DNA of 10,330 nt from a virus. The notes beneath the pieces are model-generated. The model saw only the letters and a list, made by a program, of their open reading frames with translations, did no database searches and was not told the origin of the DNA. Positions 1 through 10,330 of the stretch are shown piece by piece. A program made the translations under genes and the position numbers. Positions within the stretch are counted from its first letter, which is position 1. Each line of letters begins with the position of its first letter. Location of the stretch: the UHGV virus genome UHGV-1624697. The stretch is one strand, 5' to 3'.

Positions 1-30
1 CGTGGGCTCGGAGATGTGTATAAGAGACAG
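1..30 (+). other. Synthetic sequence: Illumina Nextera read-2 adapter tail ending in the 19-bp Tn5 mosaic end (AGATGTGTATAAGAGACAG at 12-30)
   Basis: Positions 1-30 (CGTGGGCTCGGAGATGTGTATAAGAGACAG) match the 3' 30 nt of the Nextera transposase read-2 adapter as I recall it. It sits at the extreme window edge with no IS50/Tn5 interior following. Confidence 0.9.
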
Positions 31-605
31 TGGCAGATGCGAAATTATTTATTGGCGGTACGCCGAACCCGAACTACCCGAACTGTAATGGCGCGTATGA
101 GTTTGCTGAACCTCATGCGCGTCGTATCGCGTTCGAATATGCGAACGGGTATTTCACGCTGGGCTGGCCGTTGCAACCATCCGAAAAGAATTACCAGTTT
201 CAGGAACTGATGAATGCAGAAACCGGATTGAACGACCACATCATGATGTATGTTGTACCGGAACAGCATTTACTGACTGGTGTTCTGTTTGAAGTACTGG
301 AAGGTGATGCGCGTATGGCAGGTGCAGCATTACGTCCAAGTGGCATGTTGTATGACCATACGACGAAGCAATACACACCTGATACGGTGCTGGATAAGTT
401 GTTTACCAATACGGCAATTACTGCGCCATTTGAGAAGTATGGGCATCTGGCAGAGCCGTATTATGTGCCGAAGGGTAAAACCCTTGTGTTGACGCTGCGG
501 GTAAACGCGGTGCCGACTGATAAGGATGTGAAGCTGTATACCACAACCGCGAAGGCACAATTGGTAGCTAAGGTTCAGGGCTTCGACGTCCCGACCGAAG
601 TATAA
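30..605 (+). CDS. 5'-truncated CDS, hypothetical structural protein (possibly a capsid-type protein; function not recognised)
   Basis: Open frame from the adapter junction to TAA at 603-605. The track's GTG start at 30 lies in adapter sequence and the in-frame codon before it is a stop inside the adapter, so the real N-terminus is missing. Capsid guess rests only on position at the head of a virion-like operon and the downstream hairpin. Confidence 0.65.
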   Translation: MADAKLFIGGTPNPNYPNCNGAYEFAEPHARRIAFEYANGYFTLGWPLQPSEKNYQFQELMNAETGLNDHIMMYVVPEQHLLTGVLFEVLEGDARMAGAALRPSGMLYDHTTKQYTPDTVLDKLFTNTAITAPFEKYGHLAEPYYVPKGKTLVLTLRVNAVPTDKDVKLYTTTAKAQLVAKVQGFDVPTEV

Positions 606-611
606 GCGTCC

Positions 612-651
612 CGGCGGGTGGCGGCCTTATCCCCGCCGCTGCCTGCCATTT
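612..651 (+). terminator. GC-rich hairpin (7-bp all-GC stem CGGCGGG / CCCGCCG, 13-nt loop) with a distal TTTT; possible attenuator or RNA stability element
   Basis: Inverted repeat 612-618 / 632-638 read directly from the sequence, in the only real intergenic gap of the window (606-663). The T-tract (648-651) is 9 nt beyond the stem, so this is not a canonical intrinsic terminator. Confidence 0.3.
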
Positions 652-663
652 TCGGAGCATATT

Positions 664-879
664 ATGAAAAAGATTGGTTTGAACGGTGATGCCACGAAAA
701 CGCCTAAAGGTAAGCCATCCACTAAACTGAAAGCAGGTAAGCTGGCGCATGGTGGTAAAGGCCGTGATGCATCTGCGATTACGAAGCTGAAAGCCGGTAA
801 GCTGGGGTCCACATCCAAAGGTCGTGGTCCAGAGGCCATTACTAAACTTCGTGCTCCTAAAGGTAAGGTAGGAATCTGA
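664..879 (+). CDS. Small lysine-rich basic protein (71 aa) made of ~20-aa tandem repeats (TKLKAGKL...); possible DNA-binding, internal or decoration protein
   Basis: ATG 664 preceded by GGAG at 653-656; stop TGA 877-879. Protein is about 18% Lys plus Gly-rich, with in-frame repeat units at 721-780, 781-840 and a partial unit at 841-876. Confidence 0.6.
   Translation: MKKIGLNGDATKTPKGKPSTKLKAGKLAHGGKGRDASAITKLKAGKLGSTSKGRGPEAITKLRAPKGKVGI
721..876 (+). repeat. In-frame tandem repeat, ~60-nt unit, about 2.6 copies (a degenerate extra partial unit may lie at about 694-720)
   Basis: Unit 1 (721-780) encodes TKLKAGKLAHGGKGRDASAI, unit 2 (781-840) encodes TKLKAGKLGSTSKGRGPEAI, unit 3 (841-876) encodes TKLRAPKGKVGI. 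Units are diverged at the nucleotide level but clearly related. Confidence 0.75.
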
Positions 880-7956: not shown

Positions 7957-8367
7957 GTGAAAGAGCTTAAGCTGATGCGGAAAGCGGGATTGCATACCGT
8001 CGACAGTGCGCCGCTGTTCCGGTGTGGCTATTTTGTGTATGCGTACGACATGGGGCAGTGGGTGGCTATGTGTCGGATACTCGGTGTCGATGACGCGGTG
8101 GATGAGGGGTGCTCGGGTGTGTGTCAGAAGTTTGTGCGCAATACGCAGCAGGTATATGCTATAGGCGTATTCAACGGAGGGCTGGACACGCTGGTACATG
8201 AGTGCGCCCATGCAGCATTTCACTTTTGCGACGATATCGGTATTACGGTTTCGCCGGACAGGGCGAATGAGACGTACTGCTACCTGCTTGACTGGCTGTT
8301 TGGTCAGGGTGTTATGGGTAATCGTGCCGCGTTCAGGCCATGCCTGGAAGAACCCGGAGGTGAGTAA
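7957..8367 (+). CDS. Small Cys/His-rich protein (136 aa) with an HExxH zincin-like motif (LVHECAHAAFHF); candidate minimal metallopeptidase or zinc-binding protein
   Basis: GTG 7957 with GGGGGTG 6 nt upstream (alternative ATG 7975); stop TAA 8365-8367. HECAH at 8197-8211 sits in hydrophobic helix-like context with a further His at 8221-8223; 9 Cys in 136 aa. Confidence 0.6.
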   Translation: MKELKLMRKAGLHTVDSAPLFRCGYFVYAYDMGQWVAMCRILGVDDAVDEGCSGVCQKFVRNTQQVYAIGVFNGGLDTLVHECAHAAFHFCDDIGITVSPDRANETYCYLLDWLFGQGVMGNRAAFRPCLEEPGGE

Positions 8368-9110
8368 TGTTTTTCATGCCTGTGGATTTATTTACGCCGT
8401 TTATTGAGGGGCGTGAGAAAGCGATCGACCGTAACTGGAACGACCTGAATCAGGCGAATCAGGTGGAGCGCGGCTGGCTGGATAATGACGCGAAGCAGTT
8501 ATCGAACTGGTTTAAACAGGACAGTTATCTGGACCAGTTGCAGCAGGTTAGAAATAAAACCGATGTCAGTAATATGAACCGTGACCTTATGGCACAGGCG
8601 CAACCTGGTGAACTGGCGAAGGCAGGATTTTCGTCGGACTACGCCATACAACTGGCTAATGCCGGGCGTCTACACGTACCAGAGTTAGTGGGTAGTCAGA
8701 TAACCGGGTGGCGGGGGAATGCTGCGGAAATCGCCGCAAAAGGTGCGGCGCAACAAGGATTCGCAGGTGACCTGTTTCGTAATCTGGCGCTCCTCAATGT
8801 ACAGAAAGCGAAAGATGCGAATACGTTGCAGCCATTAAAAATGACCGCAGAGAAGGCTACTCTGTCATCGCAGATTAATAATACATCGGGCACTGGTACA
8901 GGTACTGGTACTGGTACCGGGGCTACGCCGTCTGTAACGGGTGGTATCACAGGTATCAGTATTCCGGACAGGTCTACACAAGGGGGTACTGCTAATACTA
9001 CGTCGCCTGTATCACCCACACCTCCTGTGACTAACAGGCCCCCTGTGTCAGATTTATATCATAAGGCAATGAATACGCATTATGGCGCTTATGGGTCATG
9101 GGGTTGGTGA
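8367..9110 (+). CDS. Hypothetical virion protein (247 aa): hydrophilic N-terminal domain, (Thr-Gly)5 linker, Ser/Thr/Pro-rich segment and aromatic C-terminal tail (YGAYGSWGW)
   Basis: ATG 8367 overlaps the upstream stop (TAATG), with GGAGGTGA upstream; stop TGA 9108-9110. No predicted transmembrane segment by eye, so not holin-like. Confidence 0.75.
   Translation: MFFMPVDLFTPFIEGREKAIDRNWNDLNQANQVERGWLDNDAKQLSNWFKQDSYLDQLQQVRNKTDVSNMNRDLMAQAQPGELAKAGFSSDYAIQLANAGRLHVPELVGSQITGWRGNAAEIAAKGAAQQGFAGDLFRNLALLNVQKAKDANTLQPLKMTAEKATLSSQINNTSGTGTGTGTGTGATPSVTGGITGISIPDRSTQGGTANTTSPVSPTPPVTNRPPVSDLYHKAMNTHYGAYGSWGW
8889..8921 (+). repeat. Hexanucleotide microsatellite (ACTGGT-like, about 5 units) encoding G(TG)5
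   Basis: ggc act ggt aca ggt act ggt act ggt acc ggg read directly, in frame within the 8367-9110 CDS. Confidence 0.8.
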
Positions 9111-9111
9111 T

Positions 9112-9798
9112 ATGGATGATTTACATAATCCGATGGTCCGGGGCTTCTTTGACCTGTTAGCTAAGTCAGAAGGCACGGCAGGTAAAGGTGATAACGGGTA
9201 TAACGTCGCATTTGGCGGGGATACTACCGTTGGTTACGACACGCATCCGGGCCAGTATTACACCTTTACGCAGACGGACGGTAAGCAGAACAGAACGTCT
9301 GCCGCAGGGCGTTATCAGATAATTAAGCCGACATATGACAGTCTGGCGAAACGTCTGGGCGTGACTGACTTTTCTCCTGAGACACAGGACCGGATGGCGC
9401 TGGAACTGATACGGGAGAACGGCGCACTGGAGGATGTGAAACGTGGTGACTATGCCGCAGCAATAAATAAGCTGGGTGGCGTATGGGCCAGTCTGCCGTC
9501 CAGTACCGCGCCACAGCCGCGTCATTCTATGGTGGAATTACTGGGTAATCAGATGCCTGTTCAGCTTGTTAATCAGCGTGGCACACCGATGCTTGCCGCA
9601 CCGGAGAATGATTTTGAGCAGAATCATATGATGGGCTTCTTCGGAGCCGGGCATTCCCCTGCAATGCAGTCGTTGCTTACTAACGCACTGGCGAGGGTAA
9701 GTGAGGCGCGTAATGCGCTAGCCAGCGAGCGTCCATTTTTTGATGACTTGCCGATGGACCTTGATAACGACTTACTGGATTTAATCGACCGGGCATAA
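9112..9798 (+). CDS. Lytic transglycosylase, phage-lambda-R-like lysozyme domain (N-terminal ~150 aa) with a ~75-aa C-terminal extension; probably virion-associated
   Basis: ATG 9112 directly after the upstream stop (the track's 9082 start is an in-frame extension overlapping the previous gene). Motif blocks match lambda R as I recall it: FFDLLAKSEGT vs FLDMLAWSEGT (catalytic-Glu position, codon 9169-9171), GYNVAFGG vs GYDVIVGG, AGRYQII vs AGRYQLL, LGVTDFSPETQDRMALELIRENGAL vs LGLKDFSPKSQDAVALQQIKERGAL, VWASLPSS vs IWASLPGA. Stop TAA 9796-9798. Confidence 0.85.
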   Translation: MDDLHNPMVRGFFDLLAKSEGTAGKGDNGYNVAFGGDTTVGYDTHPGQYYTFTQTDGKQNRTSAAGRYQIIKPTYDSLAKRLGVTDFSPETQDRMALELIRENGALEDVKRGDYAAAINKLGGVWASLPSSTAPQPRHSMVELLGNQMPVQLVNQRGTPMLAAPENDFEQNHMMGFFGAGHSPAMQSLLTNALARVSEARNALASERPFFDDLPMDLDNDLLDLIDRA

Positions 9799-9802
9799 TG
9801 TT

Positions 9803-10330
9803 ATGGCGAACAATCAGAATGACCTGTTTAATCAATTCAATCCCATGACGACTACGGCGTCGAGTGACCTTTTTGCTGCACCGAAAGATACGACGAGAGA
9901 TATTTATCGGCAGCCATCCCGTTATGAATTGCAGCAACGTGCTGCCGCACAGAATGAAGCCGTATATAACGCAGCACTACGTGATTTTCAGGCGGTGATG
10001 GAAGCACCGGAGTGGCAGAATGCGTCGTTAGCGCGTCGGCAGGAAATCTACGATGATATCAAAGAGACGCAATATCAGAAGTTCCTTTCGCAGTATCAGG
10101 ATAACGAAGACTTATACTATAAGTTGCAGATGATTCCTGAGTTAACGCTTGGCGCGGATATCTCATCGTTAAAAAAGCAGATAGATGACGCCAATGAACT
10201 GGCGGATACATGGCGAGGTATGCAGACTTCCGCACACCAGGTGGCTACCGGGCTTGGTGACTCTGTTCCGATGGCCGCTATAAAGTGGCAGCGTGACCGA
10301 CTGGCTGGAAGAACGGACGCGTATGCACAA
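9803..10330 (+). CDS. 3'-truncated CDS (at least 176 aa), hypothetical protein, possibly the N-terminus of a large virion/internal protein
   Basis: ATG 9803 (alternative ATG 9845) opens a frame with no stop to the window end. It is absent from the ORF track because it has no in-window stop. Same strand and tight spacing as the operon. Confidence 0.55.
   Translation, partial: MANNQNDLFNQFNPMTTTASSDLFAAPKDTTRDIYRQPSRYELQQRAAAQNEAVYNAALRDFQAVMEAPEWQNASLARRQEIYDDIKETQYQKFLSQYQDNEDLYYKLQMIPELTLGADISSLKKQIDDANELADTWRGMQTSAHQVATGLGDSVPMAAIKWQRDRLAGRTDAYAQ

Follow-up and report, generated by a model that had tools for sequence, protein, structure and literature searches.

A probable podovirus tail and ejection module encoded by an uncultured phage element of Escherichia coli

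Gene content of the window

We analysed a 10,330-nt stretch of UHGV virus genome UHGV-1624697 (the window, meaning this whole stretch). It contains 14 open reading frames (ORFs), o1 to o14, all co-directional on the plus strand. Their union covers 98.9% of the sequence, in line with an earlier sequence-only reading, which had counted 14 ORFs on one strand at about 98% coding density and proposed a virion operon. Tail-core homology and synteny bear out that proposal. The window is very probably the tail and ejection module of a podovirus of the GP4/phi24B(933W)/Bcep22 type, forming the central third of a ~30-kb late operon in an uncultured E. coli phage of ~57-61 kb. The sequence-only reading found the proteins almost all unrecognisable. 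This holds by eye, the proteins being strongly diverged forms of known ones, but most could be assigned with profiles, synteny and fold prediction: o4, o5, o7, o9, o10, o13 and o14 by homology, o1 and o6 by predicted fold and position, and o8 and o11 weakly. Structures of this type of module are already available from relatives, and the lineage is without a characterised close relative. The features are listed below, with protein lengths in amino acids (aa) and the basis of each assignment in brackets.

1-30, no strand: adapter remnant, presumably the Nextera read-2 transposase end, non-biological (sequence; homology starts from base 31)
30-605, plus strand: o1, 191 aa, candidate capsid cement/decoration protein (predicted fold and position)
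664-879, plus strand: o2, 71 aa, small, very basic repeat protein (no family match)
881-1504, plus strand: o3, 207 aa, conserved N-terminal domain followed by a coiled/charged tail (phrog_31421)
1504-2196, plus strand: o4, 230 aa, predicted adaptor-ring protein, SU10_adaptor, GP4 gp82 type (PF24175, 8jov_2)
2177-2815, plus strand: o5, 212 aa, predicted second, paralogous adaptor-ring protein, GP4 gp81 type (phrog_437, 8jov_G)
2812-4083, plus strand: o6, 423 aa, tail fibre/receptor-binding candidate (position and predicted fold)
4080-5702, plus strand: o7, 540 aa, predicted tail nozzle (8jov_A, phrog_511)
5707-6162, plus strand: o8, 151 aa, probable diverged GNAT-fold protein (position, weak profile matches)
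6164-6979, plus strand: o9, 271 aa, internal virion/ejection-protein candidate of the GP4 gp71 family (iterated profile, phrog_37635)
6994-7953, plus strand: o10, 319 aa, second copy of the GP4 gp71-type family (paralogy, phrog_8003)
7957-8367, plus strand: o11, 136 aa, small HExxH(+E) zincin-like protein (phrog_1365)
8367-9110, plus strand: o12, 247 aa, internal-protein candidate and the most variable gene (N-terminal motif, position)
9112-9798, plus strand: o13, 228 aa (238 aa if started at 9082), predicted lambda-R-type lytic transglycosylase, GH104 (1am7/3d3d)
9803-10330, plus strand: o14, opening 176 codons of the gene for a predicted giant virion protein of 2311 aa (LPD38 and YkuD)

The starts of o1-o13 were refined and checked against gene calls on identical or near-identical contigs, and o14 was read by translation. 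All 14 ORFs were called as genes on independent contigs and ten matched PHROG or Pfam families or PDB chains. None of the seven longest minus-strand ORFs of the window had a PHROG match. Promoter-like sites (5, against 8.6 in shuffled sequence) and terminator-like sites (7, against 7.3) showed no excess over expectation, and the window contained no Rfam family and no tRNA. This fits a single long late transcript.

The first 30 bases read CGTGGGCTCGGAGATGTGTATAAGAGACAG, ending …GGCTCGGAGATGTGTATAAGAGACAG. We take them to be the 3'-terminal 30 bases of the Illumina Nextera read-2 transposase adapter. The match of the window to the circular E. coli replicon pSTEC648_2 begins at base 31, and the related contig L004 has a different sequence at the adapter position and an ATG as the start of o1. 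The GTG start of o1 at base 30 is thus an artefact of a true ATG whose A was replaced by adapter. The adapter also indicates that the source contig was untrimmed here and that the window begins at an assembly end.

The tail core

Two adjacent adaptor genes and a nozzle gene identify the module. The first adaptor, o4, scored 53.4 bits with Pfam PF24175 (SU10_adaptor; cut-off 27) and also matched PDB 8jov_2 (12 chains; E 1.6e-9) and phrog_399. An iterated profile seeded with o4 retrieved the two adaptor paralogues from 62 of the loci compared. The second, o5, matched phrog_437 (E 4.8e-31) and 8jov_G, 'gp81 of phage GP4' (12 chains; span 3-194 of 206), and phmmer against a local database gave 8.8e-7 for o5 and GP4 gp81. 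The PDB profile search with o5 was circular, its alignment already containing GP4 gp81, and was not used as evidence. Residues 3-393 of o7 matched 8jov_A (6 chains, 577 aa) at E 1.4e-34, and the protein matched phrog_511 at E 1.7e-90. By sequence, chains 2, G and A of 8jov correspond to GP4 gp82, gp81 and gp74. o7 was 24-29% identical to its counterparts in GP4, Skulduggery, Vibrio phage douglas and phi24B, with phi24B at 24%.

The same architecture has been described in a cryo-electron microscopy preprint on phi24B, with two stacked adaptor rings, a hexameric nozzle (gp57) and lateral fibres; GP4 is named there as the closest structural relative of phi24B (10.64898/2026.04.10.717836). GP4 gp81 and gp82 are also called adaptor proteins in a paper on the structure of T1 (PMC11945409). 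On the strength of homology, o4 and o5 are predicted to be paralogous adaptors and o7 the nozzle. A 12 + 12 + 6 stoichiometry, with the rings stacked under the portal, would apply by analogy with the 8jov chain counts and the phi24B description. The adaptor paralogues of phi24B (L010 11773-13094) stand in the opposite order to those of the window (1504-2815), GP4 and Skulduggery. None of the window ORF families resembled the phi24B needle, GP4 gp73 or SKUL_23 families in profile-profile comparisons.

Relatives and flanking genes

Megablast of the whole window gave no match among 50,697 phage records or 5,426 complete RefSeq E. coli genomes. The best tblastn identity of the best-conserved protein, the nozzle, was 28%, so that no cultured phage is close. 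The earlier suggestion of a poorly characterised lineage is therefore well founded, and no high-identity BLAST match to a well-annotated phage was obtained. A single nozzle sequence used as query against GTDB genomes and IMG/VR also found nothing; only an alignment of five nozzles reached relatives, at 80 IMG/VR loci. Eight of these (L015-L021 and L028), with nozzles 37-44% identical, have one gene order in common. It runs from the portal through a scaffold-sized gene, the major capsid protein (MCP) gene, o1, a small basic gene, o3-o10, o12 and a ~350-aa gene to giant genes. A parallel grammar was seen in GP4, Skulduggery and JC1, with an acetyltransferase after the nozzle, and Vibrio phage douglas and phi24B have the adaptor, nozzle and giant-protein pattern in common.

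The sequence-only reading was correct that the window shows no terminase, portal or capsid signature. The absence is a consequence of window position, as longer contigs carry TerL (phrog_2), a 642-aa portal, a scaffold-position gene and a 315-aa MCP (phrog_267) immediately upstream. No tape measure was seen either, as expected of a podovirus-type tail. Downstream on the longer contigs are the rest of the giant gene, a separate lysis cassette of two holins and a Phage_lysozyme endolysin, and a RelB-family gene.

The head genes point to a different lineage. The portal (L004 2875-4803) was nearest to that of Rhizobium phage RHph_TM3_14A (26.5% identity) and to those of HMO-2011, Roseobacter and Pelagibacter podoviruses. 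The MCP (L004 9051-9998) was 24% identical to the RHph_TM3_14A MCP (BLASTP E 2e-11). TerL, the portal, the scaffold-position protein and the MCP had no match in the PDB by phmmer. In RHph_TM3_14A, judged by annotation only, the genes beyond the MCP include no tail block with comparable annotation. Sequence comparison thus presents the phage as a mosaic, in which a different head lineage is joined to a GP4-type tail core. The GP4/933W tail core would then be a portable cassette, able to combine with head modules of unrelated origin.

Capsid-proximal genes

On contig L004, o1 lies directly downstream of the major capsid gene. Its AlphaFold2 model (15-sequence alignment; mean predicted confidence, pLDDT, 70) has a disordered arm at residues 1-46 and a confident beta-sandwich at 65-185. 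In a Foldseek search of the PDB, the GP4 capsid chain 8h89_J (155 aa) ranked fourth with probability 1.00 and template-modelling (TM) scores of 0.44/0.52. Among the 50 listed matches it had the highest target-normalised TM-score (0.52) and the lowest root-mean-square deviation (3.9 Å, over 136 superposed columns). The KHP40 cement protein 7dou_4 was also among the matches, and the remainder were generic viral jellyrolls, TNF and CBM folds. Judging by length, 8h89_J is GP4 gp1 (157 aa), which has been reported as a cement protein (PMC9698820). Sequence support was marginal: hhalign aligned the o1 and GP4 gp1 families at E 0.0055 over 35 columns, a PDB profile search with the o1 family gave nothing significant, and the phrog_34200 family matched by o1 is listed as of unknown function. 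Taken together, the modelled jellyroll and the slot after the MCP make a cement/decoration protein the somewhat favoured prediction for o1.

The following gene, o2, encodes a protein with an isoelectric point (pI) of 11.1 and three AITKL(K/R)A-(G)K-type repeats, and had no PHROG or Pfam match. In relatives the slot between o1 and o3 is filled by low-complexity proteins of 73-77 aa with a pI above 10 (e.g. L017 6494-6715, L018 6052-6279 and L020 6711-6944), with no sequence similarity detectable between lineages among these small basic proteins. o3 matched phrog_31421 at E 2e-10, and its homologues are restricted to the eight-locus IMG/VR subclade. By position it is the analogue of GP4 gp83 and phi24B vb_24B_33, to neither of which was a profile-profile link found. 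The same comparison, extended to the o1, o2, o3, o6, o8, o11 and o12 families and the positional-analogue families of GP4, phi24B and Skulduggery, gave no significant link.

The fibre candidate

o6 occupies the slot between the second adaptor and the nozzle, as do phi24B gp61 and the GP4 fibres. We found 21 homologues, the closest 99% and the most distant 30% identical, and no PHROG or Pfam sequence match. The AlphaFold2 model (pLDDT 62) is all-beta and confident only at residues 300-420, with a poorly modelled N-terminal domain. Against the PDB, Foldseek returned the lambda central tail fibre 8xck_F (gpJ) at E 9e-5, followed by CBM6, CBM35 and PPC-type sandwiches. The matches in BFVD comprised one uncharacterised protein of a podovirus (E 1e-17) and numerous fibre proteins of the Stf, gpJ, collagen and C1q types. 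Predicted fold and position thus make o6 a candidate for the single fibre/receptor-binding protein, with a glycan-binding-like tip. Within residues 1-91 (window 2812-3090), eight cysteines (C4, C13, C25, C31, C44, C67, C84 and C91) are invariant or nearly so in homologues down to 25% identity. This domain could be a metal-binding or disulfide-stabilised anchor, which would be unusual for the N-terminus of a tail fibre.

The distal block

The genes that follow the nozzle were more difficult to assign. The sequence-only reading had allowed for a fast-diverging module of internal or ejection proteins. This suits the block o8-o14, in which o12 and o13 are the most variable genes, but not the window as a whole, which also holds a conventional tail core.

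o8 stands in the slot taken by an acetyltransferase after the nozzle in GP4 (gp72), Skulduggery (SKUL_24) and JC1 (gp63). Profile searches of the PDB with the o8 family gave weak matches only (1z4e, E 0.04; 3fyn, E 1.6), and one of six family members matched Acetyltransf_6/_1 (E 0.003-0.007). o8 itself had no Pfam match, and hhalign of its family against the GP4 gp72 family was negative. The protein is probably a diverged GNAT fold, although weakly assigned. A stretch R-K-G-F-T-G, resembling the GNAT acetyl-CoA motif (R/Q-x-x-G-x-G/A), occurs in a distant family member (L040 14871-15359) and is missing from o8 and its close relatives. If the fold is GNAT, the acetyl-CoA motif of o8 would be degenerate and the protein may be non-enzymatic.

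o9 and o10 are tandem paralogues (39% identity, E 3e-43). o9 matched phrog_37635 (E 4.5e-35) and, weakly, phrog_21132 'DNA ejection'; o10 matched phrog_8003 'virion structural protein' (E 2.7e-8). Their iterated profile gave 93 matches in 66 loci and takes in GP4 gp71 ('virion-associated'), SKUL_25, phi24B vb_24B_44/45 and douglas VPAG_66/65. Searched with a profile containing gp71, the 8jov chains held no full-length homologue, and the sole match was a local one to the fibre chain 8jov_1 (E 1.8e-4). The gp71 family is thus virion-associated but lies outside the ordered GP4 tail chains, which fits internal or ejected proteins. An amphipathic/hydrophobic helix is present at about residues 34-52 of o9. 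In JC1, mass spectrometry of virions detected gp64, in the slot after the acetyltransferase, and the DarB-like giant, but not the acetyltransferase (PMC9144972); gp64 is likened to o9/o10 by gene position alone. By homology, o9 and o10 are predicted GP4 gp71-type virion proteins and, by analogy, candidates for an ejection role.

o11 matched phrog_1365 (E 7.9e-23). Its distant homologues fall into 264 representative clusters, mostly of 110-140 aa. H81, E82, H85 and E105 were invariant in 35 diverse members. Matches to curated families were sub-threshold only, with SprT-like weak in nine of the 35 and an astacin motif. A 3234-aa protein with an o11-like stretch contained no informative domains. 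The iterated profile detected no o11 counterpart in the IMG/VR relatives, and the subclade has no such ORF between o10 and o12. Its sequence suggests a zincin-like protein, weakly assigned, and a lineage-specific insertion that is present in the E. coli elements.

o12 is conserved only in a ~50-aa N-terminal motif, with a helical middle, a Thr/Gly/Pro-rich tail and an (ACTGGT)n repeat. Among six elements otherwise 97-99% identical, o12 showed 84-91% nucleotide identity and o13, the next most variable, 88-98%. In element L006 the adaptor genes o4 and o5 are 91-94% identical, and the o12/o13 counterpart lies at L006 11475-12786. The o12/o13 hot spots of divergence and the L006 adaptors together suggest recombinational mosaicism within the family.

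The lysozyme-like domain, the one domain recognised by the sequence-only reading, is real. Residues 8-143 of o13 align to residues 7-142 of lambda lysozyme 1am7 (1am7/3d3d, E 2.4e-24), and the Glu of its SEGT motif falls on lambda Glu19, the catalytic residue. o13 also matched phrog_17230 'tail fiber protein/lysozyme' (E 2e-48), is annotated as GH104 in pSTEC648_2, and carries a ~85-aa C-terminal extension beyond the GH104 domain. The same domain type occurs inside larger virion proteins, at internal profile positions in phrog_17230 and phrog_90 and in the 'hub' protein 8kea_A. Because of this, and because a lysis cassette lies downstream, we propose from sequence that o13 is a virion-borne peptidoglycan cutter that would act at entry.

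The full-length o14 gene was found on the 100% identical contig L001 (10722-17657). It encodes 2311 aa, with an LPD38 domain at residues 1996-2155 (E 2e-14) and a YkuD L,D-transpeptidase domain at 1097-1210 (E 1.1e-5). Its phi24B equivalent, gp47, has been proposed as an ejection protein (10.64898/2026.04.10.717836). The corresponding protein of JC1 is the DarB-like giant detected in virions. The YkuD domain, a murein cross-link enzyme fold, is an odd presence in a presumably injected giant beside a separate transglycosylase.

Proposed mechanism and alternative functions

Short-tailed phages such as T7 (gp14/15/16) and P22 (gp7/20/16) need internal proteins to span the envelope, and the N-terminal domain of T7 gp16 is a lytic transglycosylase. 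The window would likewise encode the parts that render a DNA-filled head infectious, with the genes roughly in the order of assembly. The adaptors would dock on the portal and the nozzle would close the channel, sealing the packaged head. Trimers of o6 would attach at the adaptor/nozzle junction, bind a surface glycan and mediate adsorption. On a trigger, the internal proteins o9, o10, o12, o13 and o14 would exit through the nozzle ahead of the DNA. o13 would cut murein, whilst o9, o10, o12 and o14 would bridge the periplasm, extending the short tail across the envelope and delivering enzymatic domains, and the DNA would follow. The resemblance to the T7 and P22 ejection proteins is one of functional analogy only: no sequence relationship was detected, the transglycosylase here stands alone as a GH104 protein, and the largest component, of 2311 aa, is a polyvalent protein.

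Several points weigh against this interpretation. Relatives with only 22-29% identity are the source of the copy numbers, the ring order and the 'ejection' role, and the element is known from sequence only. The head genes are not GP4-like by sequence (MCP against GP4 gp2, BLASTP E 1.4), so a T=9 capsid is not a safe assumption. Confidence in the models of o1 and o6 is moderate at best (pLDDT 70 and 62) and jellyroll and sandwich folds are common, whilst the matches that suggest a GNAT fold for o8 have E-values of 0.003-0.04. No needle or plug gene was found beside the nozzle, which is directly followed by o8; phi24B has gp56. This last point bears on o6, which might itself be the central needle or plug and not a lateral fibre. 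The proteins are nearly equal in size (423 aa, against 422 aa for the phi24B needle), no other needle candidate lies near the nozzle, and the best PDB fold match of o6 is a central tail fibre, lambda gpJ. However, the o6 gene precedes that of the nozzle, in the place of the lateral-fibre genes of GP4 and phi24B, and hhalign showed no profile similarity between o6 and the needle family of phi24B (E 0.87), leaving a needle an unlikely identity for o6. We judge it similarly improbable that o8-o14 chiefly supply cargo or effectors for anti-restriction, cell-wall remodelling or proteolysis, or act as assembly factors, with o13 as a second endolysin. Giant homologues are indeed annotated as DarB-like antirestriction proteins, o14 carries a YkuD domain and o11 a protease-like HExxH, and the syntenic acetyltransferase of JC1 went undetected in virions (PMC9144972). 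By contrast, the holin-holin-lysozyme cassette downstream is complete, the o13 domain type is found within larger virion proteins (phrog_17230, phrog_90, 8kea_A), and both GP4 gp71 and JC1 gp64, the latter in the same slot as o9/o10 by position, are virion-associated. Cargo and ejection roles are in any case not exclusive.

Comparison with known systems

Ralstonia phage GP4 (Gervaisevirus; PDB 8jov, 8h89) resembles the window in its two paralogous adaptors, its nozzle, a gp71-type protein that follows a small protein in the acetyltransferase slot, a giant virion protein of several domains further downstream, a cement-like jellyroll (o1) and a genome of ~61 kb. The proteins are, however, only 22-29% identical, and GP4 has six genes, including several fibres, between adaptor and nozzle, where the window has one. 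GP4 also has a small gene between nozzle and acetyltransferase, a PAPS-reductase gene and a tyrosine recombinase; its MCP and portal have no detectable relation to those upstream of the window, and its block lacks a GH104 or HExxH gene.

The Stx-converting phage phi24B/933W (Sepvirinae, Traversvirus) has the same host, E. coli, and likewise encodes gp71-type proteins (vb_24B_44/45) and a giant LPD38-containing ejection protein. Its two adaptor rings, alike in fold, its hexameric nozzle and its lateral fibres would have their counterparts in o4 to o7. It differs in being an integrated lambdoid prophage with a 422-aa needle gene after the nozzle, an unrelated fibre and a swapped adaptor order. 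In JC1 (Lessievirus, Bcep22-like Burkholderia podoviruses) and Pseudomonas phage Skulduggery, the comparable order is MCP, small virion protein, two ~210-aa proteins, fibres, ~580-aa 'head closure' protein (nozzle), acetyltransferase, virion proteins, giant and lysis genes. These phages have other hosts and a different GC content, several fibre genes and a DarB-like giant of 3.7-4.5 thousand amino acids, and their acetyltransferase is a clear GNAT, whereas o8 is only marginally recognisable as one.

The E. coli element and its lifestyle

The sole PLSDB match was pSTEC648_2 (CP061838.1), a closed 60,552-bp circle from E. coli STEC648, a Shiga-toxigenic (STEC) isolate from sheep. It is 97.6% identical in nucleotide sequence to window 31-10330 with the same gene order, and is the same element as the window, although a database record and not a characterised system. 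In this record, 13 of the 14 window genes are labelled 'hypothetical protein'; we found no paper on STEC648. ORF by ORF, the window is 100% identical to the 57,195-bp metagenome contig L001. The exact o1 protein occurred in 150 index blocks of an assembly collection, in 119 of which the longest contig fell in the 50-200 kb class and in none of which it exceeded 200 kb. Contigs read as carrying the element were 52-61 kb, and came from many isolate assemblies named E. coli and also from metagenomes. All named homologues were E. coli.

According to database records, pSTEC648_2 is a circular extrachromosomal replicon of an isolate, with packaging, head, tail and lysis genes. Positions 23779-35061 encode a replisome of an exonuclease, a 756-aa DNA polymerase (phrog_17, E 1e-60), a helicase and a DUF927 primase-like protein, and in addition a ParB-like protein, ArdA, a bactofilin-like protein and RelE/HigA. 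The record also has RusA, and its annotation lists no integrase, repressor or ParA.

We conclude that the element is likely kept extrachromosomally, with phage-plasmid and carrier state about evenly balanced. It is quite possible, if less than probable, that it is a virulent or pseudolysogenic podovirus in a carrier state, or co-assembled, and that the 'plasmid' label is an assembly artefact of a circularly permuted genome. A further point against a phage-plasmid is that its own polymerase, helicase and primase-like protein, together with the lack of an annotated integrase or repressor, also fit a virulent phage in a carrier state. The self-encoded RusA, the missing ParA annotation, the absence from the 5,426 complete RefSeq E. 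coli genomes and the assembly from metagenomes agree with this. On the other hand, pSTEC648_2 was deposited as a closed circular isolate replicon, its genes include a RelE/HigA addiction module, ArdA and a ParB-like protein, and the o1 protein lies on 50-61 kb contigs in many E. coli isolate assemblies. The identity of the tail module is the same in either case. A defective prophage remnant, gene-transfer agent or tailocin in place of a complete phage is scarcely credible. Nothing specific favours it beyond the want of head and packaging genes in the window, and on the contigs that bear it there are also genes for TerL, the portal, the scaffold-position protein, the MCP, lysis and replication. 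These contigs cluster tightly at a genome-like 52-61 kb, with none above 200 kb.

Tentatively, and as a proposal not far short of an even chance, we consider the element to represent a new family-level lineage of ~57-61 kb E. coli podovirus-type phage-plasmids. It would combine a PolA-type replisome, a ParB-like protein and a toxin-antitoxin pair with a Rhizobium/HMO-2011-type head and a GP4/933W-type tail core, and would be widespread in assemblies without a cultured or described representative. The eight-Cys fibre anchor and the HExxH protein in the virion module would be lineage traits. Two known groups were considered as homes for it and rejected. The pSLy3 phage-plasmid group is SSU5-related, and the p-p47 family comprises 118 elements of 42-56 kb, against the single PLSDB match here. 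Should the element be a true phage-plasmid, it would be a short-tailed lineage with its own replisome, belonging neither to any of the ten typed groups of phage-plasmids nor to the p-p47 family, to judge from their published descriptions.

Current understanding is not overturned by these results, which are mechanistically unsurprising. They are useful for annotation and give a lead to a possible new phage-plasmid group. For 13 'hypothetical proteins' of a recurrent E. coli element, found among others in a Shiga-toxigenic sheep isolate, they provide a testable virion map that points to a candidate receptor-binding fibre, tail-channel builders and putatively injected proteins. Elsewhere in pSTEC648_2, ~2.4 kb (7594-9987) contain no listed gene and short ORFs only. 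This gene-poor stretch lies between the start of the minus-strand late operon and the plus-strand early genes, and is probably a divergent control or origin region.

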